A stretch of 64,000 bases of DNA from contig CANRHQ010000003.1 of the NCBI GenBank assembly GCA_947630445.1, positions 11,733 to 75,732 of the forward strand, read 5' to 3'. A program made the position numbers and the translations under genes. The notes beneath the pieces are model-generated. The model did not search any database, had not been told where the DNA came from, and saw only the letters and a program-made list of their open reading frames with translations. How positions within the stretch are numbered: the first letter of the stretch is position 1; the number at the start of each line of letters is the position of its first letter. This DNA comes from an uncultured Clostridia bacterium (GTDB lineage: Bacteria > Bacillota > Clostridia > TANB77 > CAG-508). Of this stretch, positions 13,215 to 39,119 are shown one piece after another.

Positions 13215-13411
13215 CTTAATCTCTATAATTAAAGAAAAATAAAAAAGATGTAAATAACTAAAAATATGTATATTTACATCTTTTCTTGATTTTTAATTTT
13301 CATAATTTTATAAAAATATTTCTAAAAAAATTTTTTTCATAAAGTATTGCAATTAGTATATTTTATTGTTAAAATTATTTTATGAATAAATCTTTAATTA
13401 TAGAGATTAAG
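13215..13411. promoter_or_regulatory. Candidate invertible promoter cassette (inverton) A
   Basis: Perfect 21-bp inverted repeat: CTTAATCTCTATAATTAAAGA at 13215..13235 and its reverse complement at 13391..13411. The 155-bp interior holds a hairpin (13243..13256 / 13271..13284, AAAAGATGTAAATA / TATTTACATCTTTT). It also holds a plus-strand promoter: TTGCAA 13347..13352, 17-nt spacer ending TGT, TAAAAT 13370..13375. The promoter points away from gene A. Confidence 0.7.
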
Positions 13412-13515
13412 GATTTTTTTGTTCTGTAAAATAATAATGTATTTATTTTTATATTCATTTTTTATAATGATATATTTCCTTTTAAATTTTCTTCTATCAT
13501 ACTTTTGCGAATCAA

Positions 13516-13596
13516 TTATGTAATAATTAATAAAAATAGTACTATTAAAATTATAATACAAAATACTTTGCATTTCATTTTAATAGTACTAAAAAT
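13516..13596 (-). repeat. Remnant copy 2 of the 5' end of the membrane-protein gene (start codon mutated to ATT)
   Basis: Near-identical to remnant copy 1: ...AGTACTATTAAAATGAAATGCAAAGTATTTTGTATTATAATTTTAATAGTACTATTTTTATTAATTATTACATAA on the minus strand. Track ORF 13505..13750 is its antisense shadow. Confidence 0.7.
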
Positions 13597-13620
13597 ATTA
13601 AAATTTTTCCTTTTTTTCTA

Positions 13621-14766
13621 TTATTCCTCTAATGTTATATGTGATTCCTCAGAACGAGTTTCATATATATCTTCTAAATTAGGACAAGTTCCTTTCAATA
13701 CTAAATTAGCATCTGGATTAGTAGAAGCATTTCGCAAGCAGCCATCATAACCATACCAACCATCAAGCAACTCAGCCGAATTAATAATTAATTCTCCAGT
13801 AAGATTACTGCATCCATAAAAGCAATAACTCAAATCTCTAACTTGTGTTGGAATCATTGGTGCAGTAGTTAAACTTTTACAGTCATTAAAAGTCGAAGAC
13901 ATGTAAGTAACTGTATCAGGAATATCAGGTGCAATAACTAAATTAGAACAACTATAAAAAGTCGCAAGCATATAAGTAACAACACGCCATTGGTCTTCCC
14001 CAGCTACTTTTATATATTGAGGAACTTTTCCTTGTATTTTCCCATCAACAATATCAGAATTCTGATATGCTGGTTCTGAAAAGCTACCCATACTCGCACA
14101 CAACACAATTGAATTGTCTCCTTCCTTTTGATACTTCCAAAGATCCATATTAACTGGATTTCCATCTGTTCCTATTCCAATATCTCCATTTTCTGAACTT
14201 TGGCTTGGATGTTTTTTTGCATTTTCTATAGCCTTTTCCCAGTCTATTTCTGTTGAATCTGATATACTAGTTATATATCCTATTTCTTCCATATTCTCTT
14301 TTTTATCATAATATACTAATATATATTCTTCTGTAATTCTTTCACTTGAAAGTTTTACATTTTCTATACTTGCTACTTTTGATAATTTATCACTTTCTTC
14401 TAACTTATATACATCCTTTGTTCCACTTCCATTTCCGTATTCTATTGTTTTTCCTAATAAATTATATATATTTACTGTATAATCATCATTTATGAATCCT
14501 TTTCTTTGTAAATATTCCATTAAATGCTCATTTAAACCTCTTGTCTCTTTTTCTACCATATAATTCTGTGTTTCTATCTGTAATACCTCATACACTTCTG
14601 CGTGTGCATTTTTTGTTTTTGCCTCTTTTGAATTTGTTATTATTCCATTATCTCCTGATAACATTGCAATTGATGTTCCCGCTAATATTAATAATACTAC
14701 AATCGTTACTACTAATGCTATTAGCGTTATACCTTTTTGTTTTTCTCTTGTTTTTTCCTCTTTCAT
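13621..14766 (-). CDS. Pilin-like-N-terminus surface/secreted protein with BspA-type leucine-rich repeats (paralog B)
   Basis: 381 aa. The first ~205 aa and the last ~30 aa are nearly identical to paralog A. The central LRR-bearing part has diverged. Same RBS and leader. Confidence 0.85.
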   Translation of the reverse strand: MKEEKTREKQKGITLIALVVTIVVLLILAGTSIAMLSGDNGIITNSKEAKTKNAHAEVYEVLQIETQNYMVEKETRGLNEHLMEYLQRKGFINDDYTVNIYNLLGKTIEYGNGSGTKDVYKLEESDKLSKVASIENVKLSSERITEEYILVYYDKKENMEEIGYITSISDSTEIDWEKAIENAKKHPSQSSENGDIGIGTDGNPVNMDLWKYQKEGDNSIVLCASMGSFSEPAYQNSDIVDGKIQGKVPQYIKVAGEDQWRVVTYMLATFYSCSNLVIAPDIPDTVTYMSSTFNDCKSLTTAPMIPTQVRDLSYCFYGCSNLTGELIINSAELLDGWYGYDGCLRNASTNPDANLVLKGTCPNLEDIYETRSEESHITLEE

Positions 14767-14790
14767 TGGTTCCTCCTTTATTTGTTTTTT

Positions 14791-14984
14791 CTTAATCTTT
14801 GTAATTAAAGAAAAATAAAAAGATGTAAATAACTTAAATATGTATATTTACATCTTTTTTGATTTTTAATTTTCATAAATTTATAAAAATATTTGTAAAA
14901 AATTTTTCCTCATAAAGTATTGCAATTAGTATATTTTATTGTTAAAATTATTTCATAGAATAATCTTTAATTACAAAGATTAAG
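14791..14984. promoter_or_regulatory. Candidate invertible promoter cassette (inverton) B
   Basis: Perfect 21-bp inverted repeat: CTTAATCTTTGTAATTAAAGA at 14791..14811 and its reverse complement at 14964..14984. Hairpin at 14818..14831 / 14845..14858. Plus-strand promoter: TTGCAA 14920..14925, 17-nt spacer, TAAAAT 14943..14948, pointing away from gene B. Confidence 0.7.
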
Positions 14985-15014
14985 GATTTTTTTCATTTAT
15001 TTTTTATATTAATA

Positions 15015-17762
15015 TTATTCATCTTTAGCAGTATTTAGTTTTAATAATTTTAATATCTCGACTATTACAATTGGTGCTAATATTAGCAATATAATTTCTA
15101 AAATATTTCCCATTGGCAAAACTGGTATACTAAATATATGTCTTAATGCAGGAACAAATAAAATTACACCCATTAGTATAGCTGATACTAATACTGCAAG
15201 AATTAATACGCCGTTTCCCAATATTCCTGTTTTAAATATTGACTTTTTATTATCTCGTATATTAAATACATGAACTAATTCAGAAAAAGCTAATACTGTA
15301 AATGCCATTGTTTGACCAACTTCAACTTTTAATTGTTCAGTTGTTAGTTGTGCCAAATCAGAATTATTAGCTTTTAATAAATCTATTGCATCATTTGGTA
15401 TTGCAAGACCTATTAAAAATGCTATAAGTGTAAGTAAACCTATCATTATACCTTGATATATAATTCTAAATGTTCTTCCTTTTGTAAATATCCCTTCATT
15501 TTTCTTTATAGGTTTTCTATTCATTATATCTTTATTTGCTGGATCAAATGCTAATGCTAATGCTGGGAATGTATCTGTTACTAAATTTATCCATAAAATA
15601 TGAATTGGTAGTAATACTTGTAGCATTGCTACATCTGATATTCCAAAGCATTTTGCAATTATAGGTGCAAATAATGTTGCTAATAATAAAACTACTACTT
15701 CTCCAACATTACAAGAAATTAAAAATTGTATTACTTTTAATATGTTGTCATATATTCTTCTTCCTTCTTCTACTGCTGATACTATTGTTGCAAAGTTATC
15801 ATCTGTTAATATTACATCTGCTGCTTCTTTTGCAACTTCTGTACCAACTTTTCCCATTGCACATCCTATATCAGAAGTTTTTAATGCTGGACTATCATTT
15901 ACTCCATCACCTGTCATTGCAACAATTTCTCCATTTGCTTGCCATGCTTTTACTATACGCACTTTATGTTCAGGTGATACTCTTGCATATACTGAATATT
16001 TTCTTATATCTCTCTTTAATTCCTCATCAGAAATTTTTTCTAATTCTGCTCCAGTTAAAGCCTCACTATCATTTTCTAATATTCCTAACTTCTTTGCTAT
16101 TGCTACTGCTGTAACTTTGTGATCTCCTGTAATCATTACGGTTTTTATTCCTGCTGTTTTACATTTTTCTACTGCTTTTTTAGCTTCTTCTCTTGGAGGA
16201 TCTATCATTCCAACCATTCCAATAAATGTTAAATCTGTTTCAATTGTTTTCATTTCTTGTTTAGTTGGCATATGGTCAATCTCTTTATATGCAAATGCTA
16301 ATACTCTTAATGCTTCTTTTGCCATGTTTTCATTGTTTTCTCTTATTATTTTAGCATATTCATTTAAGTCTTTTTTTACTTCACCATTATATAAATATGA
16401 ATTACATATTCTTAATAATTCATCTACTCCACCTTTTGTATATACTATATATTTTCCATTATTCTCATTAACTGTTGTCATCAATTTTCTTTCAGAATCA
16501 AATGGTACTTCTTCTACTCTTTTATTCTCCTCATATATTTCTTGCTTATATTTCAATTTTAATGCCATATCTACTAATGCTGTTTCTGTTGGGTCTCCTA
16601 CTAATTCTCCATTTTCTAGTAATCTTGTGTCATTACATAACATACAATTATATATCATTTTATCAAATTCTTCTGTTTTTTCTGTCTTGCTTACATCTGT
16701 TGTTTTATTATTGCAAAATATTTTTTCTACTGTCATTTTATTTTGAGTTAATGTTCCTGTTTTATCTGAACATATTACAGTACTACTACCTAAAGTTTCT
16801 ACAGCTGGTAATTTTTTTACAATAGCATTTTTCTTAACCATTTTTTGGACTCCTATAGCTAATACTATTGTTGATACTGCTACTAATCCCTCTGGTATTA
16901 CTGCTACTGCTAAAGATACTGCTGTCATAAACATATCTATTATACCTTTACCTTGTAGCAATCCTATTATAAATATTATTGCACATATTGTTAATGCTGC
17001 AATTCCTAAAGTTTTTCCTAAACTATTTAACCTTTGTTGAAGTGGAGTTTCTTGTTTTTCTGTTTCATTTAACATTCCTGCTATTTTTCCAACTTCTGTA
17101 TTCATTCCTGTTTCAACAACTATTGCCTTTCCTCTACCATATGTAATAAGACTTGATGAAAATAGCATATTGATTCTATCACCAACTCCTACTTCTTTGG
17201 CATTTAATTCTTGTGTTTCTTTTTCTACAGGTACTGATTCTCCAGTTAATGAAGATTCTTGTGCTTTTAAATTTATTGCTTCTATGATTCTTAAATCTGC
17301 TGATACATAATCTCCTGTTTCTATTATAACTAAATCTCCTGGCACTAATTCTCTAGCTGGTATAACTTGTTCTTTTCCATCCCTAATTACTTTTGCAGCA
17401 TGTTCACTCAATTTTTTTAATGCTTCTAATGATTTTTCTGCTTTACTTTCTTGTATAACTCCAATTATTGCATTTAAAAGTACTACTATTAGAATTATTA
17501 CTGTATCTGTTATTCCTTCTCCTTCTGCTACTCCTACTATTCCAGATACTATTGCTGCTATTATTAAAACAATTATTGAAAAATCTTTAAATTGTGCAAT
17601 AAATTTTTGAAATAATGTTTCTTTCTTTTTTTCCTTTAATTCATTTAATCCATATTGTATTTTATTTTCTTCTACCTTATTGCTTTCTAATCCTCTACTT
17701 AAATTTGTAGATAATTCTTGTTCAACTTCCTTAATAGTTTTATTAAACCATTGTTTTTCCAT
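15015..17762 (-). CDS. P-type Ca2+-transporting ATPase (PMCA/SERCA-like, P2 type)
   Basis: 915 aa. Motifs CSDKTGTLTQNKM (phosphorylation site), TGES, MITGDH, TGDGVNDSPALK, and ten TM helices. Confidence 0.9.
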   Translation of the reverse strand: MEKQWFNKTIKEVEQELSTNLSRGLESNKVEENKIQYGLNELKEKKKETLFQKFIAQFKDFSIIVLIIAAIVSGIVGVAEGEGITDTVIILIVVLLNAIIGVIQESKAEKSLEALKKLSEHAAKVIRDGKEQVIPARELVPGDLVIIETGDYVSADLRIIEAINLKAQESSLTGESVPVEKETQELNAKEVGVGDRINMLFSSSLITYGRGKAIVVETGMNTEVGKIAGMLNETEKQETPLQQRLNSLGKTLGIAALTICAIIFIIGLLQGKGIIDMFMTAVSLAVAVIPEGLVAVSTIVLAIGVQKMVKKNAIVKKLPAVETLGSSTVICSDKTGTLTQNKMTVEKIFCNNKTTDVSKTEKTEEFDKMIYNCMLCNDTRLLENGELVGDPTETALVDMALKLKYKQEIYEENKRVEEVPFDSERKLMTTVNENNGKYIVYTKGGVDELLRICNSYLYNGEVKKDLNEYAKIIRENNENMAKEALRVLAFAYKEIDHMPTKQEMKTIETDLTFIGMVGMIDPPREEAKKAVEKCKTAGIKTVMITGDHKVTAVAIAKKLGILENDSEALTGAELEKISDEELKRDIRKYSVYARVSPEHKVRIVKAWQANGEIVAMTGDGVNDSPALKTSDIGCAMGKVGTEVAKEAADVILTDDNFATIVSAVEEGRRIYDNILKVIQFLISCNVGEVVVLLLATLFAPIIAKCFGISDVAMLQVLLPIHILWINLVTDTFPALALAFDPANKDIMNRKPIKKNEGIFTKGRTFRIIYQGIMIGLLTLIAFLIGLAIPNDAIDLLKANNSDLAQLTTEQLKVEVGQTMAFTVLAFSELVHVFNIRDNKKSIFKTGILGNGVLILAVLVSAILMGVILFVPALRHIFSIPVLPMGNILEIILLILAPIVIVEILKLLKLNTAKDE

Positions 17763-17971
17763 AAATTTTTTCCTTTCTTAAAATTTATTTTAACCATTTC
17801 ATTATAGTTTATTATAAGTAAACCTAAATGAGACCTTTAAAGAAAAAATATATACAATTATAATATTCTTTCTTTAAAAGTCTCGTTTACTTGTATTAAG
17901 TTTGTTAACCAGATATTTAATATCGCGATTGTTGGCTAACAATTTAAAACTACTCCCTTTTAAGTTATTTT

Positions 17972-18046
17972 TGGTAGCCCGTACGGGAATCGAACCCATG
18001 ATTCCACCTTGAGAGGGTGGCGTCTTAGCCGCTTGACCAACGGGCC
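17972..18046 (-). tRNA. tRNA-Glu (anticodon CTC as read)
   Basis: The minus strand reads GGCCCGTTGGTCAAGCGGCTAAGACGCCACCCTCTCAAGGTGGAATCATGGGTTCGATTCCCGTACGGGCTACCA. Anticodon stem CCACC/GGTGG, loop CT-CTC-AA. The backbone resembles Bacillus tRNA-Glu. Confidence 0.85.
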
Positions 18047-18147
18047 AAATAAATTTACTTTATAGTTATACCATATATTCGTTTTCTAGTCAATTATTTT
18101 ATTTAAAAAAATAAGATATAAATTTTAAAAAAGAATAGCATTAAAAG

Positions 18148-20469
18148 CTATTCTTCTTTCTTTTTCTTTAAATTTACAACAATTGCATTTTCATTATCAA
18201 ATATAAAATTTGAATCTGTTGTATCTGTTTGGACAGGATTAACTTCCTGTTTTTCATCTGTAAAGTTTACATTTTTTGGATTAAATTTTATTTTTGTTGA
18301 ATCATCTGGTTCATTATTTGTAACACCTGGTGTAAATTTTGTAAAGTTATATATTTTTACAGGTTGTTCTTCTTTATATTTTGCACCTATAAAATCTAGT
18401 TTTGCTTCACCTATATCATATGAACCATAATCATTTTTCAACTTTAATGCTCCTATTTTGAATCCTAAAGTTGCAAGTTTATTTACAGGGAAATATAACT
18501 CCCAATCATATTTTACACCGCCCCATTTTGGATCATAAGAATTAGTTTTGGTATCCAAACTCTGTGAATATATCCATGTCCTTCTCTTATAGAATTCACT
18601 TGACCACCATTCTAGTTCTTCTGTTACTGCATTTCCTAGGAATAATTTATTTGCACAATTTGATAATATTGTATCTTTATATTTTAATTTTGGTGAGTTT
18701 CCTTCTAATTGTGCTAAGTTTTGTGCTGTTATTGTTGTTCCAACTTTATATTTACGATATAGTGTAAATATTGCTTCTGTATCTTTACATATAAAATCTG
18801 GAAATTCATCTATATATAAGAAATGTGGTATTCTACTACTTTCATTTCCTGGTCTTCTTAATACACCCATTTGCATTGAAAGTATAAAGAATAATCCGAA
18901 TGCTTTATGACTAGTTCTTCCTAAATCTCCTCTACGAGTACATACTAATGTTACTTCACCATTTGCTAATGCTTTGTCAAAATCTATATTATTAGTTCTT
19001 TTACAAAGAATTGCCTTAACTCCTGGTAATCTTAATAAATTATCTAGTTGTGATACAGCTAAATATATATATTTCTCTGTATCTGCTTTTCCTGGACCAT
19101 CAGCATAAAAATTCTTTTTGAAATACTCTATTTGCATACTATATTTTTCTGCTAATTCCTCATCATTTCTCATTATTTCGCACATTTTTTCTACTAAGTC
19201 AAAGTTTGTAAGCATTTTTAACATATCTTCTAGATTTGGTAAATTTCCACCATTTATTCTAGGATACATTTCTTTTAACATAATTGTTAAATTTTCTATT
19301 GCTTGAATTATATATTCTTCTCTGTATGAATCCTCTATTTCTGGATGATTATTTACATACATTCCTTTTAATGCTGATGATATTGTTATTGCTATTTTTG
19401 AAGCATCATCATAAACAAATGGATTTAATCCAATTGAATCACTACTTCCTGGATCTATCAAATTATATTTTATATGAAAGTTTTTACAAACATTCATTAT
19501 TTTAGAAGTTGATTCAAAGTCAGGTGCTATTGATGTTATACCTACATTTCTATAAATAAATTCATTTCCAAATGATGATAATATCATTTTATTCATATAA
19601 GCCTTATAAACAGTTTCTTTACCATAAGCTGGTGTAAGCATATTTAAATCAAAATTCTCATTTAGATAATCATTATCATATGGTTTATTTAATGTGGCTA
19701 TACCTGTTTTTAATGCTGTATATCCCATTTCCTTTGCATTTGCTATATAAAATGCTTTCTTTTCAATATCTTTTGCCATCATTGGTTCTAGTACTAAAGT
19801 AGTTTTTCCTGTTCCTGAACCTCCACATACAAATAATGATTGATATCTCTTTTGTTCGAAAAATGTCATTTTTCTACCAGTTTCAAACTCTGTACAAAAT
19901 AACATATCACATGTAAATGGTCCATGTCCTGCTTTAGAATCTGCTAAACTTATTCCTCTATAATCCCATAAAGATCTTTTTGCATCTTTACTATCATTAA
20001 TTTTAAATACAATCCACTTTATTACTGAATAAAATGTCGTTAATGGTAAGTATAGTGCTAATGCTGTAAATGCTGGTCTAATTAATTCTGAAAAGTCTGT
20101 AACTAACTCTGTATATCCAGGCATTGATATTAAAAAGAGCCATGCTGCTTGATTAATCCATTGTACAAACATTGATAATGCTATTACATATAAAGTAACT
20201 ATGTATGTTAAAAATAATGTTATTTTTATATTTTTTGATGAAGCAAATTCTGATGTTGGTGAAAATAAAAATGCAAAAACCGGACATGCAAGTGCTAATG
20301 TGTATCTAATTGGTCCCCAATATGAAACAGATACACCTGTAAACACTAAAAATAACATTTCTACTACTCTATCAACTAATATGTATAATGAAATCAATGT
20401 TAATACATAAGTTGCAAATGTATTTCTGCTAGCATTTAGTTTCTTTAAAAATTTATCTATTATTTTCAT
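18148..20469 (-). CDS. Membrane-anchored VirD4/TraD/TraG-like type IV coupling-protein ATPase (orphan)
   Basis: 773 aa. About 5 N-terminal TM helices, Walker A VCGGSGTGKTTLV, Walker B-like HFLYIDEFPDF, then GTTITAQNLAQLEG. This is the T4CP arrangement hhhhDE...Q..xQL. Confidence 0.7.
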   Translation of the reverse strand: MKIIDKFLKKLNASRNTFATYVLTLISLYILVDRVVEMLFLVFTGVSVSYWGPIRYTLALACPVFAFLFSPTSEFASSKNIKITLFLTYIVTLYVIALSMFVQWINQAAWLFLISMPGYTELVTDFSELIRPAFTALALYLPLTTFYSVIKWIVFKINDSKDAKRSLWDYRGISLADSKAGHGPFTCDMLFCTEFETGRKMTFFEQKRYQSLFVCGGSGTGKTTLVLEPMMAKDIEKKAFYIANAKEMGYTALKTGIATLNKPYDNDYLNENFDLNMLTPAYGKETVYKAYMNKMILSSFGNEFIYRNVGITSIAPDFESTSKIMNVCKNFHIKYNLIDPGSSDSIGLNPFVYDDASKIAITISSALKGMYVNNHPEIEDSYREEYIIQAIENLTIMLKEMYPRINGGNLPNLEDMLKMLTNFDLVEKMCEIMRNDEELAEKYSMQIEYFKKNFYADGPGKADTEKYIYLAVSQLDNLLRLPGVKAILCKRTNNIDFDKALANGEVTLVCTRRGDLGRTSHKAFGLFFILSMQMGVLRRPGNESSRIPHFLYIDEFPDFICKDTEAIFTLYRKYKVGTTITAQNLAQLEGNSPKLKYKDTILSNCANKLFLGNAVTEELEWWSSEFYKRRTWIYSQSLDTKTNSYDPKWGGVKYDWELYFPVNKLATLGFKIGALKLKNDYGSYDIGEAKLDFIGAKYKEEQPVKIYNFTKFTPGVTNNEPDDSTKIKFNPKNVNFTDEKQEVNPVQTDTTDSNFIFDNENAIVVNLKKKKEE

Positions 20470-20564
20470 TGCTTTTTCCTTTCATTTTAATAAACTCCTA
20501 CACTATATATTATCCTATAAAATCAGTAAAATTACAAGCCTTTTCGGCAAATTTTACAATATTT

Positions 20565-21416
20565 TTAAAATATTAGCTCTAAAACTATTCCTGAAATAAC
20601 CCCTATAAAATAAAGTAAACTTGCAATTTTTATATTTTCTTTAATATTTTTATTAATTTTAAATAAAACTAATATACCAACACCTGCATTAACTGCTACC
20701 CCTGATATCAATATTGGTAGGGTTATAACATTAGATATAAATAACTCTGTTAATATAACAGATGAAGCACAATTAGGAATTAGTCCTATTAGTCCAGCTA
20801 TTATTGGACCTAATATAATATTCTGACTTATAATACTACCTATTGTTGCTTTTCCGACAATACTAATAATAATATTTATTATTAGTGTTATTATAAAAAT
20901 ATAAATTAATATATTTATAGAATGCTTTATTGCTGACTTTAATATTCCATTTTCACAATCACAATGTTCATTTTCGCAAAGTTCTTCTATATTTTCTTGC
21001 AATTCTCCTTTTTTTGTAAGTCTAATTACAAAATCTACTATAAATCCTGCAATTACACCAATTGCTAATTTAATACTTAAGATTACTAATATTGTAGTTA
21101 ATGGAACTGATTCTGTTAATAATATAGGCAACATTTCATCAGAAGTTGCTAAATATACTGATAATAATGTTCCTAATGTTATTACTCTTGCAACATATAA
21201 ATTAGTAGCAGATACAGAAAATCCACATTGTGGGAATATTCCAACCAATGCTCCTAGAAATGGTCCAAATACTCCGGATTTTTTTATTATTTCTCTCGAT
21301 TTATCACCTGTTTTATGTTCAATATATTCCATAATTAAATATGTTAGAAACAAAAACGGTAATAATTTAATGCTATCTATTATTGTTTCTTCTATAACTG
21401 CTAATATATTTTGCAT
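20565..21416 (-). CDS. Polytopic membrane permease (possibly of the putative heavy-metal/manganese exporter ArsP_2-like family)
   Basis: 283 aa built from two homologous halves, each with a P(Q/N)C(G/A)(F/S)S motif (FPQCGFS and IPNCASS). The family name is tentative. Confidence 0.6.
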   Translation of the reverse strand: MQNILAVIEETIIDSIKLLPFLFLTYLIMEYIEHKTGDKSREIIKKSGVFGPFLGALVGIFPQCGFSVSATNLYVARVITLGTLLSVYLATSDEMLPILLTESVPLTTILVILSIKLAIGVIAGFIVDFVIRLTKKGELQENIEELCENEHCDCENGILKSAIKHSINILIYIFIITLIINIIISIVGKATIGSIISQNIILGPIIAGLIGLIPNCASSVILTELFISNVITLPILISGVAVNAGVGILVLFKINKNIKENIKIASLLYFIGVISGIVLELIF

Positions 21417-21430
21417 ATTTGCTTTCCTTT

Positions 21431-21880: not shown

Positions 21881-21897
21881 TTTTCTATTCCTCCATT

Positions 21898-26379: not shown

Positions 26380-26385
26380 AACAGA

Positions 26386-30380: not shown

Positions 30381-31394
30381 CTAATTTTCATCGTTTTTAT
30401 CATTTAGTTTTTTGCTGATATATTTCATTACAGATATTACTTTGGCATAATCCATTCTCTTTGGTCCTATTATTCCAATTGTTCCCATTTCTTTGTTTCC
30501 TATTCTATGTTTAAAAGTTACTACACTAAAATCTTTTAATTCTTCTTTTTCGTTTTCTTCTCCTATATATATATTTATATCTTTTGCAAAACCATTATTT
30601 AACATATCTGCCATTAAATCTTTCTCATCTAATATGTTTACAAAATTTCGTGCTACTTCTAAACTATTAAATTCTGGCAATTCAAATAATCTATTAGCTC
30701 CTTCTAAATGTACACTTTCTTCTTCTATTACCTTTTTCATTTGTTCTATTATTGGTTTTATTAAGTTTACACTATAACTCATTTCTTCTACTAAATATTT
30801 TTCTAAAGGTTTGTCTATTTTAGTTATTGGTTCACCTTTTAGTTTGTTATTAAACATTAAACTTAATGTTTGAACTTGATTTTCTGTAATGTCCTCATCA
30901 AATTTTATTATAGTTTCTTTTACTAAACCTGTATCTGTTAATATAACTGCCATCATCATCCTATTACTTAATAGAACAAATTTAATGTTTTCTATTTTTT
31001 GAACACTTGAATTAGGTCCTATAGCTACTGTGGTATAATGTGTTATTTCTGATATAGTACTTGATGCTATTTTTGTCATTTCTTCCATTTCACTTACTTT
31101 GGTTTCTAGTTTTTCACTAATGTATTTAATTTCTTCAAGTGTTATTTTGTCATCTTCTAAAAGTTCATCTACATAAAACCTATATCCTTTTGCTGATGGT
31201 ACTCTTCCTGCTGATGTATGTGGTTTTTCCAAATAGCCCATTTTTTCTAATTCTGCCATTTCATTTCTTATTGTTGCACTACTATATTCTAGCCCTTCTA
31301 AATTCATTATAGCATTTGAACTTACTGGCTCTGCTGTTCTAATATATTCTTCAATTATAGCTTGCAATACTCTCTTTTTTCTTTCATCTAGCAA
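30381..31394 (-). CDS. hrcA: Heat-inducible transcription repressor HrcA
   Basis: 337 aa. N-terminal wHTH region RKKRVLQAIIEEYIRTAEPVSS. TTG start after AAAAGGAGGGG. First gene of the hrcA-grpE-dnaK-dnaJ order. Confidence 0.9.
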   Translation of the reverse strand: MLDERKKRVLQAIIEEYIRTAEPVSSNAIMNLEGLEYSSATIRNEMAELEKMGYLEKPHTSAGRVPSAKGYRFYVDELLEDDKITLEEIKYISEKLETKVSEMEEMTKIASSTISEITHYTTVAIGPNSSVQKIENIKFVLLSNRMMMAVILTDTGLVKETIIKFDEDITENQVQTLSLMFNNKLKGEPITKIDKPLEKYLVEEMSYSVNLIKPIIEQMKKVIEEESVHLEGANRLFELPEFNSLEVARNFVNILDEKDLMADMLNNGFAKDINIYIGEENEKEELKDFSVVTFKHRIGNKEMGTIGIIGPKRMDYAKVISVMKYISKKLNDKNDEN

Positions 31395-31430
31395 TCTTTA
31401 CCCCTCCTTTTAGTTTTGGGAAATTGCATT

Positions 31431-31457
31431 TTAGCACTCTTTTAGTCTGTTTACTAA
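31431..31457. promoter_or_regulatory. CIRCE-like HrcA operator (one arm degenerate)
   Basis: TTAGCACTC-N9-GTTTACTAA, against the consensus TTAGCACTC-N9-GAGTGCTAA. One arm is perfect and the other matches 6 of 9. Confidence 0.6.
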
Positions 31458-31515
31458 ATCCGTATAATATATTATATTATTTTTTAGCACTTGTCAATAC
31501 CTTTTGCTAATTTTT

Positions 31516-32655
31516 TTATATAAATTCTTCCCAAACCAAATTAGCTAAATCAATTCCTCTATTTGTAAGTTTAATATTTTCCCCATCTATCATTAATAGT
31601 TTTTCATTAACTAATTTATTTAGTTGATTTCTATATAAATATAATGGATTGTCTCCAAATTTATTTTTAAAATCGCTTATTTTTACTCCATCTATTTTTC
31701 TAAGCCCTAATAACATATATTCTCTTTTGGTATCATCTTCTTTTTGAATTTCGTGTATAATTCTATTTCTTTCTAATTTTCCAGTTTTTATATTTTTAAT
31801 ATATTCATTTATATCTTCTGTGTTGGAATATCTACATATATCTCTATATGAATGTGCCGCTATTCCAAATCCTATATATTCTTGTTGATTCCAACAATTC
31901 ATATTATGTCTTGACTCATATCCAGTCTTTGCAAAATTAGATATTTCATAATGTTTATATCCATTTAATTCTAATGTATTTTTTACATACCAATACATAT
32001 TTCTTTCGGTGTCTTCTTCTGGAAGTTCTAATTCGTGTCTCTCAATCATTTGTGCCATTTTTGTATTTTCTTCTATTATTAGAGAATAAACAGAAATATG
32101 TTCCGCTTCTAATTCTATTATTTTATTTAGGCTTTCTTTTAAATCTGCTATTCTTTGATTTGGCAAGCCTAACATTAGATCAACATTTATATTTTTGAAT
32201 CCTACTTTTCTAGCCATTTCATATGTATCTAAAAATTGTTTATAATCATGAATCCTTCCAATTTGTTTTAATAATTTGTCTTGTGTACTTTGTAATCCTA
32301 TGCTTAATCTATTTATCCCATAATCTTTATAGCACTGTAATTTTTCTAATGTTACTGTACCTGGATTAACTTCAATTGTTATTTCTGCTTTTGGTGAAAT
32401 TTTTTTCTTTTGCAATGATATAATAATGTCTTTTATATATTTGCAATCAATATATGATGGAGTTCCACCTCCAATATATATTGTTGTTATTTCTGAACTA
32501 ATTTTTTGTAGTTCTATTTCTTTTTTTACTGCATTAATATATTTTAATATAATATCATCTTTGTTAGCATATGATACAAAATCACAATAATAACACTTCT
32601 GTTTACAAAAAGGTATGTGTATATATATTCCTATTTCTCTATTCTTCATTCGCAA
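31516..32655 (-). CDS. hemW: Radical SAM heme chaperone HemW (HemN-like)
   Basis: 379 aa. Radical SAM cluster motif CKQKCYYCDF. Conserved position upstream of hrcA. Confidence 0.88.
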   Translation of the reverse strand: MRMKNREIGIYIHIPFCKQKCYYCDFVSYANKDDIILKYINAVKKEIELQKISSEITTIYIGGGTPSYIDCKYIKDIIISLQKKKISPKAEITIEVNPGTVTLEKLQCYKDYGINRLSIGLQSTQDKLLKQIGRIHDYKQFLDTYEMARKVGFKNINVDLMLGLPNQRIADLKESLNKIIELEAEHISVYSLIIEENTKMAQMIERHELELPEEDTERNMYWYVKNTLELNGYKHYEISNFAKTGYESRHNMNCWNQQEYIGFGIAAHSYRDICRYSNTEDINEYIKNIKTGKLERNRIIHEIQKEDDTKREYMLLGLRKIDGVKISDFKNKFGDNPLYLYRNQLNKLVNEKLLMIDGENIKLTNRGIDLANLVWEEFI

Positions 32656-33487
32656 TCTCCATTATTTTTTTCAACCTATAATTTACTCCTGATTTTCCTA
32701 TAGGTTCTTTTAACATTTGACCTAATTCTACTAAACTTGCATTTGGATTTTCTAGTCTTAATTTAGCTACTTCTTGCAAAGATTCATTCATTTTATTAAA
32801 TTTCTTTTTTTGTTTTAATTTTTTGATAGCCTCAATTTGTTCAATAGATGCATTAATAGTTTTATTCAAATTTGCAGATTCACAATTAACTATTCTGTTT
32901 ATTTTATTATTCATTTCCCTTTGAACTCTTATTTCTTCAAATTTTAAAACTGCTTTATTAGCACCTAATAATGCTAAAAATTTTGAAATTTCCTCACCAT
33001 CTTTTATATAAATTGCATATTCATTTTTTTTATCTATCAAACTTGTTTTTATATCAAATAATTTTAATGCTTGTATTAAATCATTTGCTTTATCTTTTTG
33101 TTTTATTCCTAATTCTAAATGATATTTCTTTTCAGGATTATTAATAGAACCTCCCCCTAAGTATGCACCTTTTATTAAGTATTTTAATTTTTCTTGTTCT
33201 AAATTTAATATATCTACCTGTGGAATTTCAACATCTTTAGAGTTAATTGATATTACAAATAATTTTCCTTGTATTGTAATATTAAAATTGTTTATCCCAT
33301 TATTACTTAATAACCTAGAAAATCTATTTATATTATACTCATTTTCTGTACTGAATTTTATCTTATTTTTTTCTTTATTAATATTACTGCTTATAAAGTA
33401 TCCTATTAATTCATATTTTATTGCTTCTTTGTTTACTAAATTATCTGTTTTACTTATTTCTTCTTTTAATTCTTTAGAAAAAGACAT
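32639..33487 (-). CDS. whiA: DNA-binding protein WhiA
   Basis: 282 aa. MSFSKELKEE... N-terminus, LAGLIDADG-like middle, C-terminal HTH ...SGVNYRLKKI. Confidence 0.85.
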   Translation of the reverse strand: MSFSKELKEEISKTDNLVNKEAIKYELIGYFISSNINKEKNKIKFSTENEYNINRFSRLLSNNGINNFNITIQGKLFVISINSKDVEIPQVDILNLEQEKLKYLIKGAYLGGGSINNPEKKYHLELGIKQKDKANDLIQALKLFDIKTSLIDKKNEYAIYIKDGEEISKFLALLGANKAVLKFEEIRVQREMNNKINRIVNCESANLNKTINASIEQIEAIKKLKQKKKFNKMNESLQEVAKLRLENPNASLVELGQMLKEPIGKSGVNYRLKKIMEIANEE

Positions 33488-33502
33488 TTTTCTCTCCTTA
33501 TT

Positions 33503-34339
33503 TTATATTTTTGTTATAATTATTCTATCATTTCCATATAAATCTTTTTTACAATATGTATCTATGTATTTATTTTCATCCTCTATTATTTTAGTTACAT
33601 CTTCTTTTTGATCATATCCTATTTCAAAACATAAATATCCACCAAATTTTAAATATTCAAGTGCTTGATTAGCTATTTTTCTATAAAAATCTAATCCATC
33701 TATTCCTCCATCTAGTGCTATTTCTGGTTCATTTTGTACTTCTTTACTTAAATGTTCTATGTCATCTTTTTTTATATATGGCGGATTTGATACAATTATA
33801 TCAAATTTTATGTTTTCTATATTTTCAAATAAATCTGATTTTATGAATTTTACATTTGCACCTAACTTATTAGCATTTTTTCTTGCTACATCTAATGCTT
33901 TATCACTTATATCTATGGCATAAATTTCTGCATCTTTTATATTTTTGTCTAATGATATTGCAATTATTCCACTTCCTGTGCATAAATCAAGTATTTTGGG
34001 TTTATTCATTTTATTTGCTATTTCTATTACTTCTTCTACTAATGTTTCTGTATCTGGTCTTGGTATTAATACTTCTTCATTTACATAGAATTCCATCTTC
34101 ATAAATTCTTGCATATGTGTTATATGTTGTAATGGTACTCCTTGAGTTATTTTTTCTATATTTACAAAATATTCCCACTGTTCCTTTTTTTCTATTTCTT
34201 TTTTATCATATATAATTAAATATTGCCTAGGCTTTTTTAAAATATATTGTAATAATAGTCTTGCTTTTAATGAAGGATTTTCTATATTATTACTTTTTAA
34301 AATTATTGTTCCTTTTTTTAATGCTTCTTTAATTGTCAT
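33503..34339 (-). CDS. prmC: Release factor glutamine N5-methyltransferase PrmC
   Basis: 278 aa. SAM-binding motif LDLCTGSG and catalytic motif VSNPPYI. Confidence 0.88.
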   Translation of the reverse strand: MTIKEALKKGTIILKSNNIENPSLKARLLLQYILKKPRQYLIIYDKKEIEKKEQWEYFVNIEKITQGVPLQHITHMQEFMKMEFYVNEEVLIPRPDTETLVEEVIEIANKMNKPKILDLCTGSGIIAISLDKNIKDAEIYAIDISDKALDVARKNANKLGANVKFIKSDLFENIENIKFDIIVSNPPYIKKDDIEHLSKEVQNEPEIALDGGIDGLDFYRKIANQALEYLKFGGYLCFEIGYDQKEDVTKIIEDENKYIDTYCKKDLYGNDRIIITKI

Positions 34340-34411
34340 ATTAATACCTCCTCCCTTTATATTAATAATATATATTATTTGTTTATTTTTTTCAATATAA
34401 AAAGAACAACT

Positions 34412-34717
34412 TTAAAGTTGTTCCTTTACTCTTCTTCTTTTACTTTCTACTACTAATGGTGGTAGTAATGGGCTATACCCATTTCCATCAAATACATCTA
34501 CTTCTACTGTTCTTGTAAGTAAATCTGTATATGTATATGATGCTGTTCTATCATTTTCCTCATATTTTACTACAAAAATATTAGGATATGCTTTTTCTAT
34601 TGTACCTTCTTTTTCAAATTCTTTACTTCTTCCTAATGAACCTTTAACAATTATCTTTTGACCTACCTTATCTAAAATGTCGGTTTTTAAATTTGTTATA
34701 TCAGTCTTACAAATCAT
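34412..34717 (-). CDS. veg: Veg protein (biofilm/sporulation-associated small DNA-binding protein)
   Basis: 101 aa. The pattern ...IVKGSLGRSKEFEKEGTIEKAYPNIFVVKY...SYTYTDLLTRTVEV matches the Veg family. Confidence 0.8.
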   Translation of the reverse strand: MICKTDITNLKTDILDKVGQKIIVKGSLGRSKEFEKEGTIEKAYPNIFVVKYEENDRTASYTYTDLLTRTVEVDVFDGNGYSPLLPPLVVESKRRRVKEQL

Positions 34718-34747
34718 TAAATCACCTACTTTGCTTAAGATGTTTTG

Positions 34748-34776
34748 AGTATATCATTCGTAGGTGATTTTGTCAA
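34748..34776 (-). promoter_or_regulatory. veg promoter
   Basis: On the minus strand: TTGACA (34776..34771), 17-nt spacer, TATACT (34753..34748). Confidence 0.6.
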
Positions 34777-34869
34777 AGCATGCATTCTTTTGTCTGTTTT
34801 GTGTATTCCTTGCACTGCAAGCATTTTCGACTTTATTTTGTCGTTTGTTACATTTATATTACATTTTTA

Positions 34870-35691
34870 TTACAGAAATATTACATTTCTTTTTCCTCTT
34901 GCACCTAATCCATTTACTCCCTTTTTTCCATCTCTTAATTCATCAACAAAGTCATCTATTGTTATATACTTATTTTTATCTGCTAGTGCAACACTTTTTG
35001 CAACTATTAATGGATCTAAAAAATCTATTAAAATTCTTGCAGGTGATGATGCAAAATTTGCTCCTGCATCCATTATTGCCTCAAAATAACTTTGACAGGC
35101 TCCTGCAAATATAACTAAATTTTTATTATTTATAACATCATATTTTCTAGCCTCTTTTACAGTTTGTATAAAATGTCTAGAATTTCTATAATTAAATATA
35201 TCTCTATATCTTGCCCCACTTTTAATCATTCCATCATGTCCTGTTATTATTAATATATCTGGATTGTATATCATAAGTAATCTATATACTACTTTAGGCT
35301 GTTTATTTTCTGGTATATTTTTTACAATAGCATTTAATCCCATTTTTTTATAGTACATCATTGATTTTTCACTATATCTCCTATCTCCATCAAGATGTAA
35401 TATTTTCCCTGTACGTATTATCTCTTTTCTTCTATCTTGTTTTATTTCTTTTTCATGATTTATTGTATTAATAATTCGATATTCCATATGTTCCTCACAA
35501 ATATGCTGTTGTTCTTTACTTGCTAATTGTAAATCTTCTATTGGCGCATCTGCTTCAATTCTTAAATCAACACCTTTTAATATCGCAATTTTTCTATTAT
35601 CACTTAATTTTATAATTCTCTTTACATAAAAAACTATATCATTATTATATGAATTTCTTGTTACTATATCGCCTTTTTTTATTTCTCGCAT
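34870..35691 (-). CDS. yabG: Sporulation-specific protease YabG
   Basis: MREIKKGDIVTRNSYNNDIVF...ILHLDGD...ILIITGHDG...FAGACQSYFEAI. The start was set to the ATG at 35691 after a GAGGTGA RBS. Confidence 0.85.
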   Translation of the reverse strand: MREIKKGDIVTRNSYNNDIVFYVKRIIKLSDNRKIAILKGVDLRIEADAPIEDLQLASKEQQHICEEHMEYRIINTINHEKEIKQDRRKEIIRTGKILHLDGDRRYSEKSMMYYKKMGLNAIVKNIPENKQPKVVYRLLMIYNPDILIITGHDGMIKSGARYRDIFNYRNSRHFIQTVKEARKYDVINNKNLVIFAGACQSYFEAIMDAGANFASSPARILIDFLDPLIVAKSVALADKNKYITIDDFVDELRDGKKGVNGLGARGKRNVIFL

Positions 35692-35867
35692 ATTATCACC
35701 TCGATTTTTGTCCAAGAAACTAATATTTTTTAGGCTATTATAATATATGTTTTTTCGACTTTTTTTGATACTTTTAATACAGTTTTTACAAAACATGGAA
35801 TTTTTTCTTTACTTATGTAACTTTACATGATATAATGCAATAAATTGGATTGAAAAGGAGGCTTTTT

Positions 35868-36398
35868 ATGAAACAACTTAATGAGCATTTGGCAGAAAAT
35901 AAAGTATTAATTCTATATTTGTTAAATAGATTGCCTGACGGAATAAAAAGTGATAACTTATATAAAATTGTTTCATCTACAAACAATATAAATTATTTTT
36001 ATTTTCAAGAATTATTGACAGATTTAATTGAGACAAAATTAGTTGGTTCATTTACTAAAGATGAAGATATTTTTATTAAAATCACATCAGAAGGTCAAAA
36101 TGCATTATCCCTTACAAAATCCCTTTTACCTGGAATTTTGAAATTAAAAGCAGACAATATTTTTAAAGAAGAAGTTTCACTTATTGCTGAAGAATCTTCT
36201 ATTATAACAGAATATATTCCAAAAGATGAAAATAATTATACTGTAAAGTGTAAAATTGTAGAAAAAAACGAAATATTATTAGAAGTTTCAACTTTTGCTG
36301 GTTCAAGAGAAAGAGCTAAACAAATTTCTGATAACTGGAAAAATAATGCAAATAAAATTTATCCTCAAATTATAAACTTATTATTAAATGGAGATTAA
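35868..36398 (+). CDS. Hypothetical protein, possible winged-helix (DUF4364-like) protein
   Basis: ATG at 35868 after AAAGGAGG. The N-terminus LAENKVLILYLLNRL resembles PadR/wHTH proteins. The family name is tentative. Confidence 0.6.
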   Translation: MKQLNEHLAENKVLILYLLNRLPDGIKSDNLYKIVSSTNNINYFYFQELLTDLIETKLVGSFTKDEDIFIKITSEGQNALSLTKSLLPGILKLKADNIFKEEVSLIAEESSIITEYIPKDENNYTVKCKIVEKNEILLEVSTFAGSRERAKQISDNWKNNANKIYPQIINLLLNGD

Positions 36399-36399
36399 T

Positions 36400-37041
36400 A
36401 TGAAAAAACAAGATATCATACCTTTTGTAGAAACTTTAAAGAATACATATCCAGACGCAACATGTAGTCTGGATTTTAAAACACCTTTTCAAATAGTGGT
36501 AGCTGTAATGTTATCTGCGCAATGTACAGATGAAAGAGTAAATAAAGTTACACCTGCTTTATTTAAAAGATGTAAAACTATACAAGATTTTGCTGATATT
36601 GACTTAAATGAACTTGAACAATTAATACATTCTTGTGGTTTTTATAAAAATAAAGCTCAAAATATAAAATTATGTGCTAAACAAGTATTAGAAAATTTTA
36701 ATGGTGAAGTTCCACAAACTATGGAAGAATTACTAACTTTAGCTGGTGTTGGAAGAAAAAGTGCTAATGTTATTTTGCTTGAGGCTTTTGGAATTGCTAA
36801 TGGTATTGCAGTAGATACTCATGCAAAAAGAATTTCAAATAGAATTGGCCTTTCACTTCAAAAAGAACCAGAAAAAATAGAACAAGACTTGTTAAAAATA
36901 TTTCCAAAAGAATATTTAAAAGACATTAATCATTTATTTGTTTGGCATGGTCGTAATACTTGTGATTCTCGTAAACCAAATTGTGTTTCTTGCACTGTTA
37001 AAAATTATTGCAAGTATTATCATAATTTATCCAAAAATTAA
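36400..37041 (+). CDS. nth: Endonuclease III
   Basis: HhH-GPD region LAGVGRKSANV and a C-terminal 4Fe-4S motif CDSRKPNCVSCTVKNYC. Confidence 0.9.
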   Translation: MKKQDIIPFVETLKNTYPDATCSLDFKTPFQIVVAVMLSAQCTDERVNKVTPALFKRCKTIQDFADIDLNELEQLIHSCGFYKNKAQNIKLCAKQVLENFNGEVPQTMEELLTLAGVGRKSANVILLEAFGIANGIAVDTHAKRISNRIGLSLQKEPEKIEQDLLKIFPKEYLKDINHLFVWHGRNTCDSRKPNCVSCTVKNYCKYYHNLSKN

Positions 37042-37092
37042 TGTATATTTTTAATATTATATGTAATACTAACATATTAAGAGGTGATATCT

Positions 37093-37218
37093 TTGACAAA
37101 TATCAATTGTTCTTTAGACTGTGTTTATCAAATTGATGGAAAGTGTTCTTATGATATTATTTCTAATTCTAGTTTATGCACTAATTCTGAATGTGCATAT
37201 TATAAAGAAGTAACTTGA
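37093..37218 (+). CDS. Unannotated small cysteine-rich protein (41 aa)
   Basis: Below the ORF-track cutoff. TTG start 6 nt after a GAGGTG RBS. Translation MTNINCSLDCVYQIDGKCSYDIISNSSLCTNSECAYYKEVT contains 5 Cys. A strong terminator follows. Confidence 0.5.
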   Translation: MTNINCSLDCVYQIDGKCSYDIISNSSLCTNSECAYYKEVT

Positions 37219-37223
37219 AATGA

Positions 37224-37263
37224 ACCCAAATTGTTAGACCTTTTTGTTTAACAATTTGGGTTT
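37224..37263. terminator. Bidirectional hairpin terminator
   Basis: AACCCAAATTGTTA...TAACAATTTGGGTT 14-bp stem between convergent genes. Confidence 0.65.
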
Positions 37264-37348
37264 CATTTGTTTAGTAAATGTTAGAAGAAAAGATGATTTA
37301 ATTATATCTAATTACACACTTAACTCGAAAGTCTTCTCATTTTCTTTC

Positions 37349-38896
37349 CTACAAGTACAAACCGATACGAAATCCATAGTATTCAGAACAGCTAGAGGGA
37401 TCCTCCTCATCCCACTTATTCGCCGTTAAACCGGCCATTCCCGAACCAACATGACCGTAGTAACCACCTCTAAGGCAAAGTTTAACACCATTTTTGACGT
37501 ATAGTTTTGTCCATTCTTCTACATTTCCTGCTAAATCATATATATTATTTGCTTTGGTATTTGGAAATTGTCCTGTTTTTATTAAATCATCTGTTCCTGA
37601 AAATGTATCATCTTTATAATTCCCCCAACTTGTACTGTCAAATCCTATTTCTTCTATTGTTTTATTTCCTGTTTCATATAACCATCCTAATGTTCTATCC
37701 CATGCTGCTCCTGTTAATAATGAACTTGTTGCATTTGTTCCTACACTTTTTGCATATCCTTCTGCTTTAGTTAATGCTTCTGTTTGTGTAATCCAATTAT
37801 ATACATATTTATTTTTTTGTGTTACTAATGTTCCTTCTTTTGATTCAGTTCTTATTTGATTTGCTAATGAATCTCCTGCTTCATATCTTCCTATATAAAA
37901 TCCTCCATTTTTATTGACACTGGTTTTGTAATTATCTTCTGGGTCTTCGTATTCAGTGAATGAAGTTTTATATTCGTTTTTAAAAATCGCTAAAAATTCT
38001 TCTCGACTCATTCCAGATGAATTTAATAAATCTTCTAATTTCATACCCAATGCTTCATACATACTTTCAACCTGTTTAAGAAGTAATTCATCTGTCATCC
38101 AAAAATTTTGTGCATATAAACTATATACTTCTAATGTTTTACTTGTTTCTCCTTTACTTGTTGTTACTTTTATTTTATATTCTCCATTTATTGTTGGCTC
38201 TATTTCTTTATTATATGTTTTTCCTAGTTGTTCATTATCTTCTGATAATATATCTTCTCCGGATGGGTCTGTTACTACTATACTTGTTATTTCTTCTTTA
38301 CTTTCTACTTTTGCAGTTATCTTTTGATCTTTTTCTACTGGCACCCATACAAATTGATTTCCAACTAACTCTGCATCTACTCCTTTTCCATTGTCCTCTT
38401 CACTATCAGATATTACATATCCCTCATTTATGCTTCCTCCTACATGATAAAATCCTTCTGGTATTGGTGGATTTTCTACTTTTGTTCCTTTTATTGTTAA
38501 ACTTATGCTTACATCAGATTTTTCTGCTTCTTCTACTTTTCCATTTTTATCTATTGTATATACATTACTACTTGGAAATGTTACCTTGAAGTTGTTTCCG
38601 TCTTCTTCTACTGTTATTCTATCATCATATTTTTTTAGTTCATCTTCAAGTTGTTTTCTTGTTACTCCTTGTCCATTATTACCAGCTATTACTGCACTAT
38701 ATGATAATTTTACTTGTTCTTTTTCTTCTCCTATTTTTGTTTCTTCTTTTGCTCTTTGTGATTGCCTTATTATTCCATTATCTCCTGCTAGCATTGATAT
38801 ACTTACTCCTGCTAGTATTAATAAGACTACTATTGTTACTACTAATGCTATTAGCGTTATACCTTTTTGTTTTTCTCTTGTTTCTTTCTTTTTCAT
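37349..38896 (-). CDS. Pilin-like-N-terminus secreted protein with C-terminal FGE/SUMF1-like (formylglycine-generating-enzyme fold) domain (paralog C)
   Basis: 515 aa. The N-terminus MKKKETREKQKG-ITLIALVVTIVVLLILAG is nearly identical to paralogs A and B. C-terminal motifs FYIGRYE, AAWDRTLGWL, NIYDLAGNVEEWT, LRGGYY and YGFRIGLY match the FGE-sulfatase domain pattern. Confidence 0.85.
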   Translation of the reverse strand: MKKKETREKQKGITLIALVVTIVVLLILAGVSISMLAGDNGIIRQSQRAKEETKIGEEKEQVKLSYSAVIAGNNGQGVTRKQLEDELKKYDDRITVEEDGNNFKVTFPSSNVYTIDKNGKVEEAEKSDVSISLTIKGTKVENPPIPEGFYHVGGSINEGYVISDSEEDNGKGVDAELVGNQFVWVPVEKDQKITAKVESKEEITSIVVTDPSGEDILSEDNEQLGKTYNKEIEPTINGEYKIKVTTSKGETSKTLEVYSLYAQNFWMTDELLLKQVESMYEALGMKLEDLLNSSGMSREEFLAIFKNEYKTSFTEYEDPEDNYKTSVNKNGGFYIGRYEAGDSLANQIRTESKEGTLVTQKNKYVYNWITQTEALTKAEGYAKSVGTNATSSLLTGAAWDRTLGWLYETGNKTIEEIGFDSTSWGNYKDDTFSGTDDLIKTGQFPNTKANNIYDLAGNVEEWTKLYVKNGVKLCLRGGYYGHVGSGMAGLTANKWDEEDPSSCSEYYGFRIGLYL

Positions 38897-38917
38897 TGTT
38901 TCCTCCTTTATTTGTTT

Positions 38918-39119
38918 TCCTTAATCTTTGTACCTTAAAGAAAAATAAAAAGATGTAAACAACTTAAATATGTATATTTACATCTTTTTATTGATTTTTA
39001 ATTTTCATTATTTTATAAAAATATTTGTAAAAAAATTTTTTCCATAAAGTATTGCAATTAGTATATTTTATTGTTAAAATTATTTCATAGAATAATCTTT
39101 AAGGTACAAAGATTAAGGA
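38918..39119. promoter_or_regulatory. Candidate invertible promoter cassette (inverton) C
   Basis: Perfect 24-bp inverted repeat: TCCTTAATCTTTGTACCTTAAAGA at 38918..38941 and its reverse complement at 39096..39119. Hairpin at 38948..38961 / 38975..38988. Plus-strand promoter: TTGCAA 39052..39057, 17-nt spacer, TAAAAT 39075..39080, pointing away from gene C. Confidence 0.7.

Follow-up and report, generated by a model that had tools for sequence, protein, structure and literature searches.

Three cassettes and the genes below them

The stretch of DNA analyzed here (the window) comprises 64,000 nucleotides (nt) of contig CANRHQ010000003.1 (assembly GCA_947630445.1, positions 11,733 to 75,732 of the forward strand) from an uncultured Clostridia bacterium. 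It contains three cassettes of about 200 base pairs (bp) each, namely A (13215-13411), B (14791-14984), and C (38918-39119), which are bounded by inverted repeats and are examined here as candidate invertible promoter switches (invertons). Each cassette stands upstream of a gene on the minus strand. Gene A (12039-13190; 383 amino acids, aa) encodes a pilin-like hydrophobic leader followed by a body of the BspA-type leucine-rich repeat (LRR)/DUF285 family, and gene B (13621-14766; 381 aa) is its tandem paralog, with 78-80% protein identity. Gene C (37349-38896; 515 aa) carries the leader module of A and B on a body that is unrelated to theirs and gives a weak FGE-sulfatase-like match. In all three genes, the distance from the arm of the cassette to the ATG is 25 nt and includes a strong ribosome-binding site (AAAGGAGGAACC in gene A). 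The leaders read K-G-ITLIALVV, with Ala instead of Glu at +5, and scored 18.5-19.7 bits against PF07963 (N_methyl), under the Pfam cut-off of 21.2; no NCBIfam pilin model matched the regulated proteins. The reading frames of genes A and B are intact, with a ratio of nonsynonymous to synonymous substitution rates (dN/dS) of 0.44, and, judged from their sequences, both genes are functional.

A search for perfect inverted repeats recovered the arms of all three cassettes. The gene-proximal arm of cassette A, CTTAATCTCTATAATTAAAGA (13215-13235, plus strand), is matched by a gene-distal arm (13391-13411, minus strand) that is its exact reverse complement, and the same holds for cassette B, with CTTAATCTTTGTAATTAAAGA at 14791-14811 (plus) and its partner at 14964-14984 (minus), and for cassette C, with the 24-nt arm TCCTTAATCTTTGTACCTTAAAGA at 38918-38941 (plus) and its partner at 39096-39119 (minus). 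An initial annotation of the window had quoted these arms and had claimed that every copy keeps a perfect repeat. The sequences agreed letter for letter and the search bore out the claim, except that the 22-nt arm first quoted for cassette C (CTTAATCTTTGTACCTTAAAGA, 38920-38941 and 39096-39117) was lengthened, as its perfect repeat reaches 2 nt further outward. The perfect repeats of 21, 21, and 24 nt thus enclose interiors of 155, 152, and 154 nt in A, B, and C, respectively, and the window has no other perfect inverted repeats of 18 nt or more at a spacing of 60-400 nt. The motif CTTAAT-N7-10-TTAAAGA occurs six times in the window, where 0.09 occurrences would be expected by chance, and all six are cassette arms. 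At their outer edge, A and B depart from strict arm identity: the first nucleotide beyond the 21-nt arm is T on the left and C on the right in both, and it matches in C and in a fourth cassette, L002, found in another genome (described below).

Each arm has an internal dyad symmetry of 8/9, AATCCTTAA ... TTAAAGATT, around a center of 7-9 nt. The register of the dyad is ambiguous (spacer 7-11), because the half-sites are AT-rich and slippery. Conserved half-sites in imperfect dyad symmetry around a variable center, which is matched between the partner arms of a copy, are the layout of a recombinase core site.

Within the interior, a block of 43 nt is invariant across the three copies (a run of this length has a p of about 0.03). 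Inside this block lies a promoter-like site, TTGCAA-17-TAAAAT with a TG before the -10 element, at 13347-13375 in cassette A, 14920-14948 in cassette B, and 39052-39080 in cassette C, on the plus strand in each case. The promoter-match scan agreed with the initial annotation that all three copies share one promoter-away orientation: the best match faces away from the gene in every window cassette. At the level of consensus matches, therefore, each cassette has an outward internal promoter, and the gene start lies 25 nt (63 nt in L002) past the other arm. At the opposite end of the interior, an AT-rich hairpin adjoins the gene-proximal arm. In cassette A this hairpin (AAAAGATGTAAATA...TATTTACATCTTTT, 13243-13284; -15.4 kcal/mol, z -4.85) has T/U-rich tails in both directions, looks like a terminator, and, as assembled, separates the ribosome-binding site from the rest of the cassette; its counterparts are at 14817-14859 in cassette B (-15.2 kcal/mol, z -4.39) and at 38945-38991 in cassette C (-17.7 kcal/mol, z -5.68).

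Between the distal arm of cassette B and the stop codon (15015) of an upstream P-type ATPase gene lie 30 nt, the terminator hairpin of spoIIP (39152-39186) is 33 nt beyond the distal arm of cassette C, and in L002 about 25 nt separate the distal arm from the terminator of a gene that we take to be rplL, its translated C-terminal sequence having been recognized by eye. In B, C, and L002, an upstream stop codon or terminator thus abuts the distal arm, and no room is left for another promoter; an upstream promoter-like match was found for cassette A alone (10/12, 13578-13550, minus strand). As assembled, the genes look silent, and the cassette promoter would drive them only after inversion.

Comparison of the copies at the DNA level showed that identity of about 90-100% begins approximately 10 nt outside the distal arm, runs through the cassette and the 5' untranslated region (UTR), and continues to about codon 20-30 of the gene, past which it collapses between A or B and C. 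The copied unit is therefore the cassette ("switch") together with the gene start, not the cassette alone.

Covariation of the arms and a fourth cassette

The initial annotation had noticed that the arms of A and B differ by two substitutions and those of B and C by one substitution plus one inserted base, with each change mirrored in the partner arm, and had held that independent decay would not produce this pattern. Alignment of the copies reproduced the mirrored changes, and the probability that the two A-versus-B substitutions were matched by exact complements through chance was roughly estimated at 5e-4. The formal alignment with a further copy that it had proposed as a check was made on four arm pairs, those of A, B, and C and that of L002 from another genome. 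Among 24 pairs, 100% of the cells were paired, and six pairs had changed on both sides, compared with 1.7 ± 1.1 in shuffles, of which 1 in 500 reached the observed value. When the partner was slid by 1 to 3 columns in either direction, just 0-2 pairs were changed on both sides. The formal count thus agreed with the estimate in rejecting independent decay, and the mirrored arm changes are real and statistically robust.

All six double-sided changes fall in alignment columns 11-19, that is, in the center of the arm, and all differences between copies lie inside the central 7-9 nt, while the flanking half-sites are constant; the half-site conservation of L002 was partly imposed by the search pattern, of which its center and its outward extension are free. 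The sole one-sided change is the outermost T/C position of A and B noted above. The six covarying pairs are strictly Watson-Crick, and no G-T intermediates were present in the center, although several of the changes are transitions. Across the cassettes as wholes, the phylogenetic signal was mixed, the odd copy being A at eight positions, C at five, and B at four, which hints at exchange between cassette copies.

The fourth cassette was obtained by scanning one genome per species from 185,579 species with the half-sites fixed and both centers left free. A single locus was returned, L002, in CALXUT01, another metagenome-assembled genome of an uncultured Clostridia bacterium; the genome of the window is evidently not in the scanned collection, because cassettes A and B fit the pattern yet were not returned. 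The arms of L002 form a perfect repeat of 25 nt (ATCCTTAATTATTTAAATTAAAGAT), with a center unlike that of all window copies and an unrelated interior, and the cassette lies 63 nt upstream of a gene with a pilin-like leader. Its promoter-like site, TTGACA-17-TATATT with TG (11/12 match), occupies the same cassette end and points in the same outward direction as those of the window copies. No other promoter-like match was found inside the L002 cassette, and none on the gene strand across the scanned region. The internal hairpin, present in the window copies, is not found in L002.

Searches in other collections gave no similar element. Two scans of JGI metagenomes (with the interior promoter block and with the repeat pattern, respectively), a search of IMG/VR, and a blastn search of cassette A against plasmids and phages found nothing, and no cassette was seen in the regions upstream of the homologous genes P0123 (a 96-nt spacer only), P0097, P0253, P0252, and P0144. 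A profile search with the shared leader returned mostly short fragments at contig ends.

Probable promoter inversion and its alternatives

We consider it likely, with appreciable room for doubt, that the three cassettes are invertible promoter switches and belong to a probable new inverton family. Their anatomy, that is, the repeats, the interior of about 150 nt, the outward promoter, the lack of room for any other promoter, the surface-protein gene downstream, and the shared motif, fits an invertible promoter. Each arm would serve as a recombinase core site made of two half-sites of about 8-9 nt around an asymmetric center of 7-9 nt, and a site-specific recombinase, its gene lying elsewhere in the genome, would bring the two arms together and exchange strands within the center, flipping the interior of about 150 nt. 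As suggested by the layout of the sites, this recombinase would be of the tyrosine type and would act in trans on several switches, like RecV of Clostridioides difficile. The assembled orientation would correspond to the OFF state, in which the sole good sigma-A promoter fires away from the gene and a hairpin, flanked on either side by U-rich tails, lies just upstream of the ribosome-binding site of the window copies. After inversion, in the ON state, transcription from the promoter would cross the arm and enter the gene, with the hairpin now shielding the promoter from upstream transcription. The predicted outcome is ON/OFF phase variation of three surface-protein genes that share a pilin-like leader.

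Tyrosine recombinases such as lambda Int, Cre, Flp, XerCD, and FimB/E demand identical overlap regions in partner sites, the sequence of which is otherwise free, and a change in one recombination site can be copied to its partner through the heteroduplex that arises during exchange. The arms would co-vary because strand exchange needs identical crossover regions, with the sequence of the center free to differ between loci; this rule accounts for the covariation and its central placement, and for the mismatch at the outermost position of A and B. A change in one arm would be lost, copied to the other through the exchange heteroduplex, or selected against until it is compensated. Covariation is thus the expected signature of invertible switches and no anomaly. 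The initial annotation had attributed the identity of the arms either to recombination between them, by inversion with gene conversion, or to selection for pairing. The anatomy and the covariation sustain this reading in the form of an inverton, and inversion with gene conversion could not be told apart from selection for identical crossover regions; the orientation seen in the assemblies and the gene content of the window do not support it.

These and several further points weigh against promoter inversion. The opposite orientation was not seen in assemblies at any of the three loci, nor in L002. Contigs of the same species from four samples, reached through the flanking proteins P0002, P0010, P0006, and P0369, were 99.9-100% identical to the window and therefore represent one strain and count as one observation. 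Sources of this strain are the assemblies ERZ27249662, ERZ27249187, ERZ27249651, and ERZ27249657 and the runs ERR10663778 and ERR10663779. Several of the contigs (L016, L017, L018, L019, and L034-L038) end inside the shared cassette/leader module or the A/B paralogs. Repeats at about 4x coverage would explain such breaks, and assemblies broken by repeats cannot report heterogeneity of orientation. No tyrosine or small serine invertase was found in the window by Pfam scans of 40 open reading frames (ORFs), which are housekeeping genes including ftsY, a glmM-like gene, a glycyl-tRNA synthetase-like gene, the hrcA-grpE operon, recA, relA, spoIIP, yabG, and whiA. The scoring of promoters is weak evidence in DNA of 26% GC, and a 9/12 match on the opposite strand overlaps the outward site inside the invariant block, so that the direction of the promoter is unsettled from the window alone; the match of L002 at the same end and in the same direction would settle it as outward, by analogy. 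The center of cassette C exceeds the others by one nt, a difference that many tyrosine recombinases would not tolerate and that the core-site model does not easily explain. Finally, most of the homologous genes in other organisms lack a cassette of this kind, and these homologs and the empty collection scans together indicate that the family is narrow.

The sole recombinase gene of the window is a fragment of a phage-type large serine integrase (62898-64000, minus strand), the N-terminus of which lies past the window. We rejected it as the invertase, as it belongs to a phage integrase family and is 24-50 kb away from the cassettes, beside unannotated genes.

Covariation alone would fit any constraint on pairing, and the arms might accordingly act in RNA: transcription from upstream would produce an mRNA leader in which they form a long-range helix of 21-25 bp, serving as an RNase III target or in translational control. 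Under this explanation the outermost position of A and B would pair as G-U, and the promoter-like match upstream of the distal arm of cassette A could supply the transcript. In B, C, and L002, however, the stop codon or terminator abutting the distal arm leaves no space for such a promoter, and a leader transcript of the window copies would meet the internal hairpin and its U-tract before reaching the gene. The strictly Watson-Crick nature of the six covarying pairs, without G-U intermediates despite several transitions, is not what an RNA helix would be expected to leave behind; nor does a helix predict that variation is confined to the center of a dyad-symmetric site or that the interior holds a conserved outward promoter. 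A search of Rfam with 12900-15200 gave no match with E ≤ 1. We therefore regard an RNA-level function as unlikely.

The short size of the cassettes, their terminal inverted repeats, and their recurrence within one genome and, as a related copy, in a second species are also features of miniature inverted-repeat transposable elements (MITEs), and the cassettes might be relics of such elements, with an outward promoter, that no longer move or invert. This origin seems quite improbable to us, since the copied unit extends from about 10 nt past the distal arm through the 5' UTR into the first codons of the gene, no clear target-site duplications or direct repeats flank the arms, and decaying termini would lose their perfect copy-specific identity. 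Furthermore, neither solitary arms nor copies outside this gene family were present in the window and the fetched loci, and the plasmid, phage, IMG/VR, and JGI collections held no similar element. Very improbable, in our estimate, is an origin of the arm identity without any dedicated recombinase, through template-switching during replication or short-patch gene conversion, in which case the cassette would be a fixed divergent promoter and terminator region. In keeping with this explanation, neither a recombinase nor an inversion was found, and template-switch mutation can make imperfect inverted repeats perfect. Against it, arms about 150 nt apart are far for intrastrand template switching and too short for RecA-dependent conversion, and it leaves unexplained both the dyad half-sites common to a second species with an unrelated interior and the absence of a forward promoter for the gene. 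A folded site like integron attC was rejected, as no integrase was found, the arms are perfect, and the loop of 150 nt holds an internal promoter.

The cassettes follow the standard design of invertible promoters, as seen in fimS, the Mpi-dependent promoters of Bacteroides, and the RecV-dependent switches of C. difficile. The switches of C. difficile have arms of roughly 20 nt and segments of 150-200 bp, similar to those of the cassettes here. In size and layout, the cassettes match validated Clostridia switches (PMC5903667, PMC11892184), and perfect copy-specific repeats around a shared motif are what inverton groups normally show (PMC11892184, PMC5903667). Shared repeat motifs are the routine basis for grouping invertons, and one survey gave a median of about three per genome for Clostridia-like Firmicutes (PMC11892184). 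C. difficile has seven validated switch sites, most of which are served in trans by RecV (PMC5903667). Its cwpV/Cdi1, flagellar/Cdi4, and cmr/Cdi6 switches (PMC5903667) resemble the cassettes in the Clostridia-class host, in being short intergenic segments with inverted repeats upstream of surface or signaling genes, in their presence as several per genome, and in the recombinase not lying beside most of the switches. They differ in that their repeats are mostly unrelated to each other, whereas the three cassettes here (four with L002) share a half-site motif and differ in their centers, and in that their inversion was validated by reads and polymerase chain reaction, whereas here we infer it from assembled sequence. 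The capsular-polysaccharide promoters of Bacteroides fragilis, inverted by the master serine recombinase Mpi (PMC11892184, PMC5903667), resemble the predicted switches here in that many paralogous copies share one repeat motif, probably under a single trans-acting recombinase, and give surface structures combinatorial ON/OFF states. They belong to another phylum, carry another motif, and control polysaccharide loci, in contrast to the sigma-A-type promoter and the single LRR or lectin-like proteins with pilin-like leaders found here.

In Escherichia coli fimS, which is inverted by the tyrosine recombinases FimB and FimE, a promoter lies in a short invertible segment, as proposed here, crossover occurs in an identical repeat flanked by recombinase half-sites, and the product is a fimbrial or pilus-like surface structure. 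In fimS, however, the repeats measure 9 bp, the segment is 314 bp long, and the recombinase genes are adjacent, whereas the repeats of 21-25 nt here hold both half-sites and no recombinase gene is adjacent. Engineered spacer variants of lox and FRT, the sites of Cre and Flp, combine conserved half-sites with a variable center that is identical in partner sites. Although a laboratory analogy only, this arrangement would explain how covariation is confined to the center and how separate switches are kept from recombining; the spacer length of lox and FRT is fixed, whereas the center of cassette C is one nt longer.

By the same analogy, the variable center of 7-9 nt might serve as a locus-specific "address", such that one recombinase would recognize the shared half-sites of every switch and exchange would be completed only between arms with the same center. 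We put this forward tentatively and think it doubtful. If true, the paralogous switches would flip independently, without recombining with each other, where cross-recombination would delete or invert 1.4 kb (A-B) or 24 kb (B-C), and the centers would be natural heterospecific spacers, evolving by concerted change of both arms as heteroduplex is repaired in the course of inversion. Should promoter inversion be confirmed, a lineage of uncultured, spore-forming Clostridia would switch at least three surface proteins with pilin-like leaders independently, two of them of the BspA-type LRR kind and one lectin/FGE-like. The cassettes would then add to the Firmicutes an inverton family whose clear shared core-site motif could help in the search for the cognate recombinase and in the annotation of similar switches, and the restriction of covariation to the center would offer a testable handle on the place of strand exchange and on how paralogous switches avoid recombining. 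The general picture, in which gut bacteria commonly carry invertons ahead of genes for surface proteins, would be unchanged.

Paralogs, neighboring genes, and minor observations

At least four further paralogs exist (P0249-P0251 and P0257), and the genome therefore probably holds more switches. The body of gene C is 64-71% identical to P0249-P0251, which lie together on another NCBI contig (35,957 nt). Gene C has a mosaic-like structure, with its first ~11 codons, 5' UTR, and cassette matching A and B and its body matching P0249-P0251, the leaders of which (MKKNKGITL, MKKQIKKDRGITL) differ from that of gene C. P0257, a paralog from the same or a sister genome on a contig of 23,909 nt, is the reverse mosaic, with a C-type body under a leader nearly identical to those of A and B. 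This arrangement suggests that recombination in the conserved leader-coding region may shuffle switches among paralogs.

Homologs of gene C in related metagenome-assembled genomes have no cassette and carry instead a dinucleotide tract in a small upstream leader ORF, as in L022 (2790-2966; (GA)11, tract at about 2821-2843) and L020 (5802-5912; (CA)10, tract at about 5832-5852). These homologs may use slipped-strand phase variation, which is a different mechanism, and the tracts suggest a tendency of the gene C family toward phase variation. A pilin-leader gene like that of L002 is split by the same in-frame TAA into ORFs of 74 and 472 aa in nine metagenome contigs of several studies (L024, 2501-4168, and L025-L032), and is a conserved nonsense allele or a pseudogene.

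Downstream of gene A, the minus strand at 9797-11820 encodes a functionally uncharacterized protein of 446 aa and a family-2 glycosyltransferase. The order of a pilin-like LRR gene, a protein of about 445 aa without a Pfam match, and a family-2 glycosyltransferase recurs in the window (9797-13190) and in the distant loci L003-L008. Because this trio recurs in distant homologous loci, the three genes downstream of cassette A probably form one operon under its switch, which may glycosylate or export the surface protein.

At the right end of the window, the serine integrase fragment has Recombinase and Zn-ribbon domains, matches phrog_95, and shows weak similarity to CcrB/XisF; its neighbors are ORFs without a family match (61114-62850) and a gene for a non-specific endonuclease (60245-60958). 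The right edge of the window may be the border of a prophage or an excisable element. Among the housekeeping genes obg, NUDIX, and P-type ATPase, a 773-aa protein (18148-20469), with no other conjugation genes noticed nearby, has a TraG/VirD4-like coupling-protein C-terminal domain with similarity to the CD1115 family.

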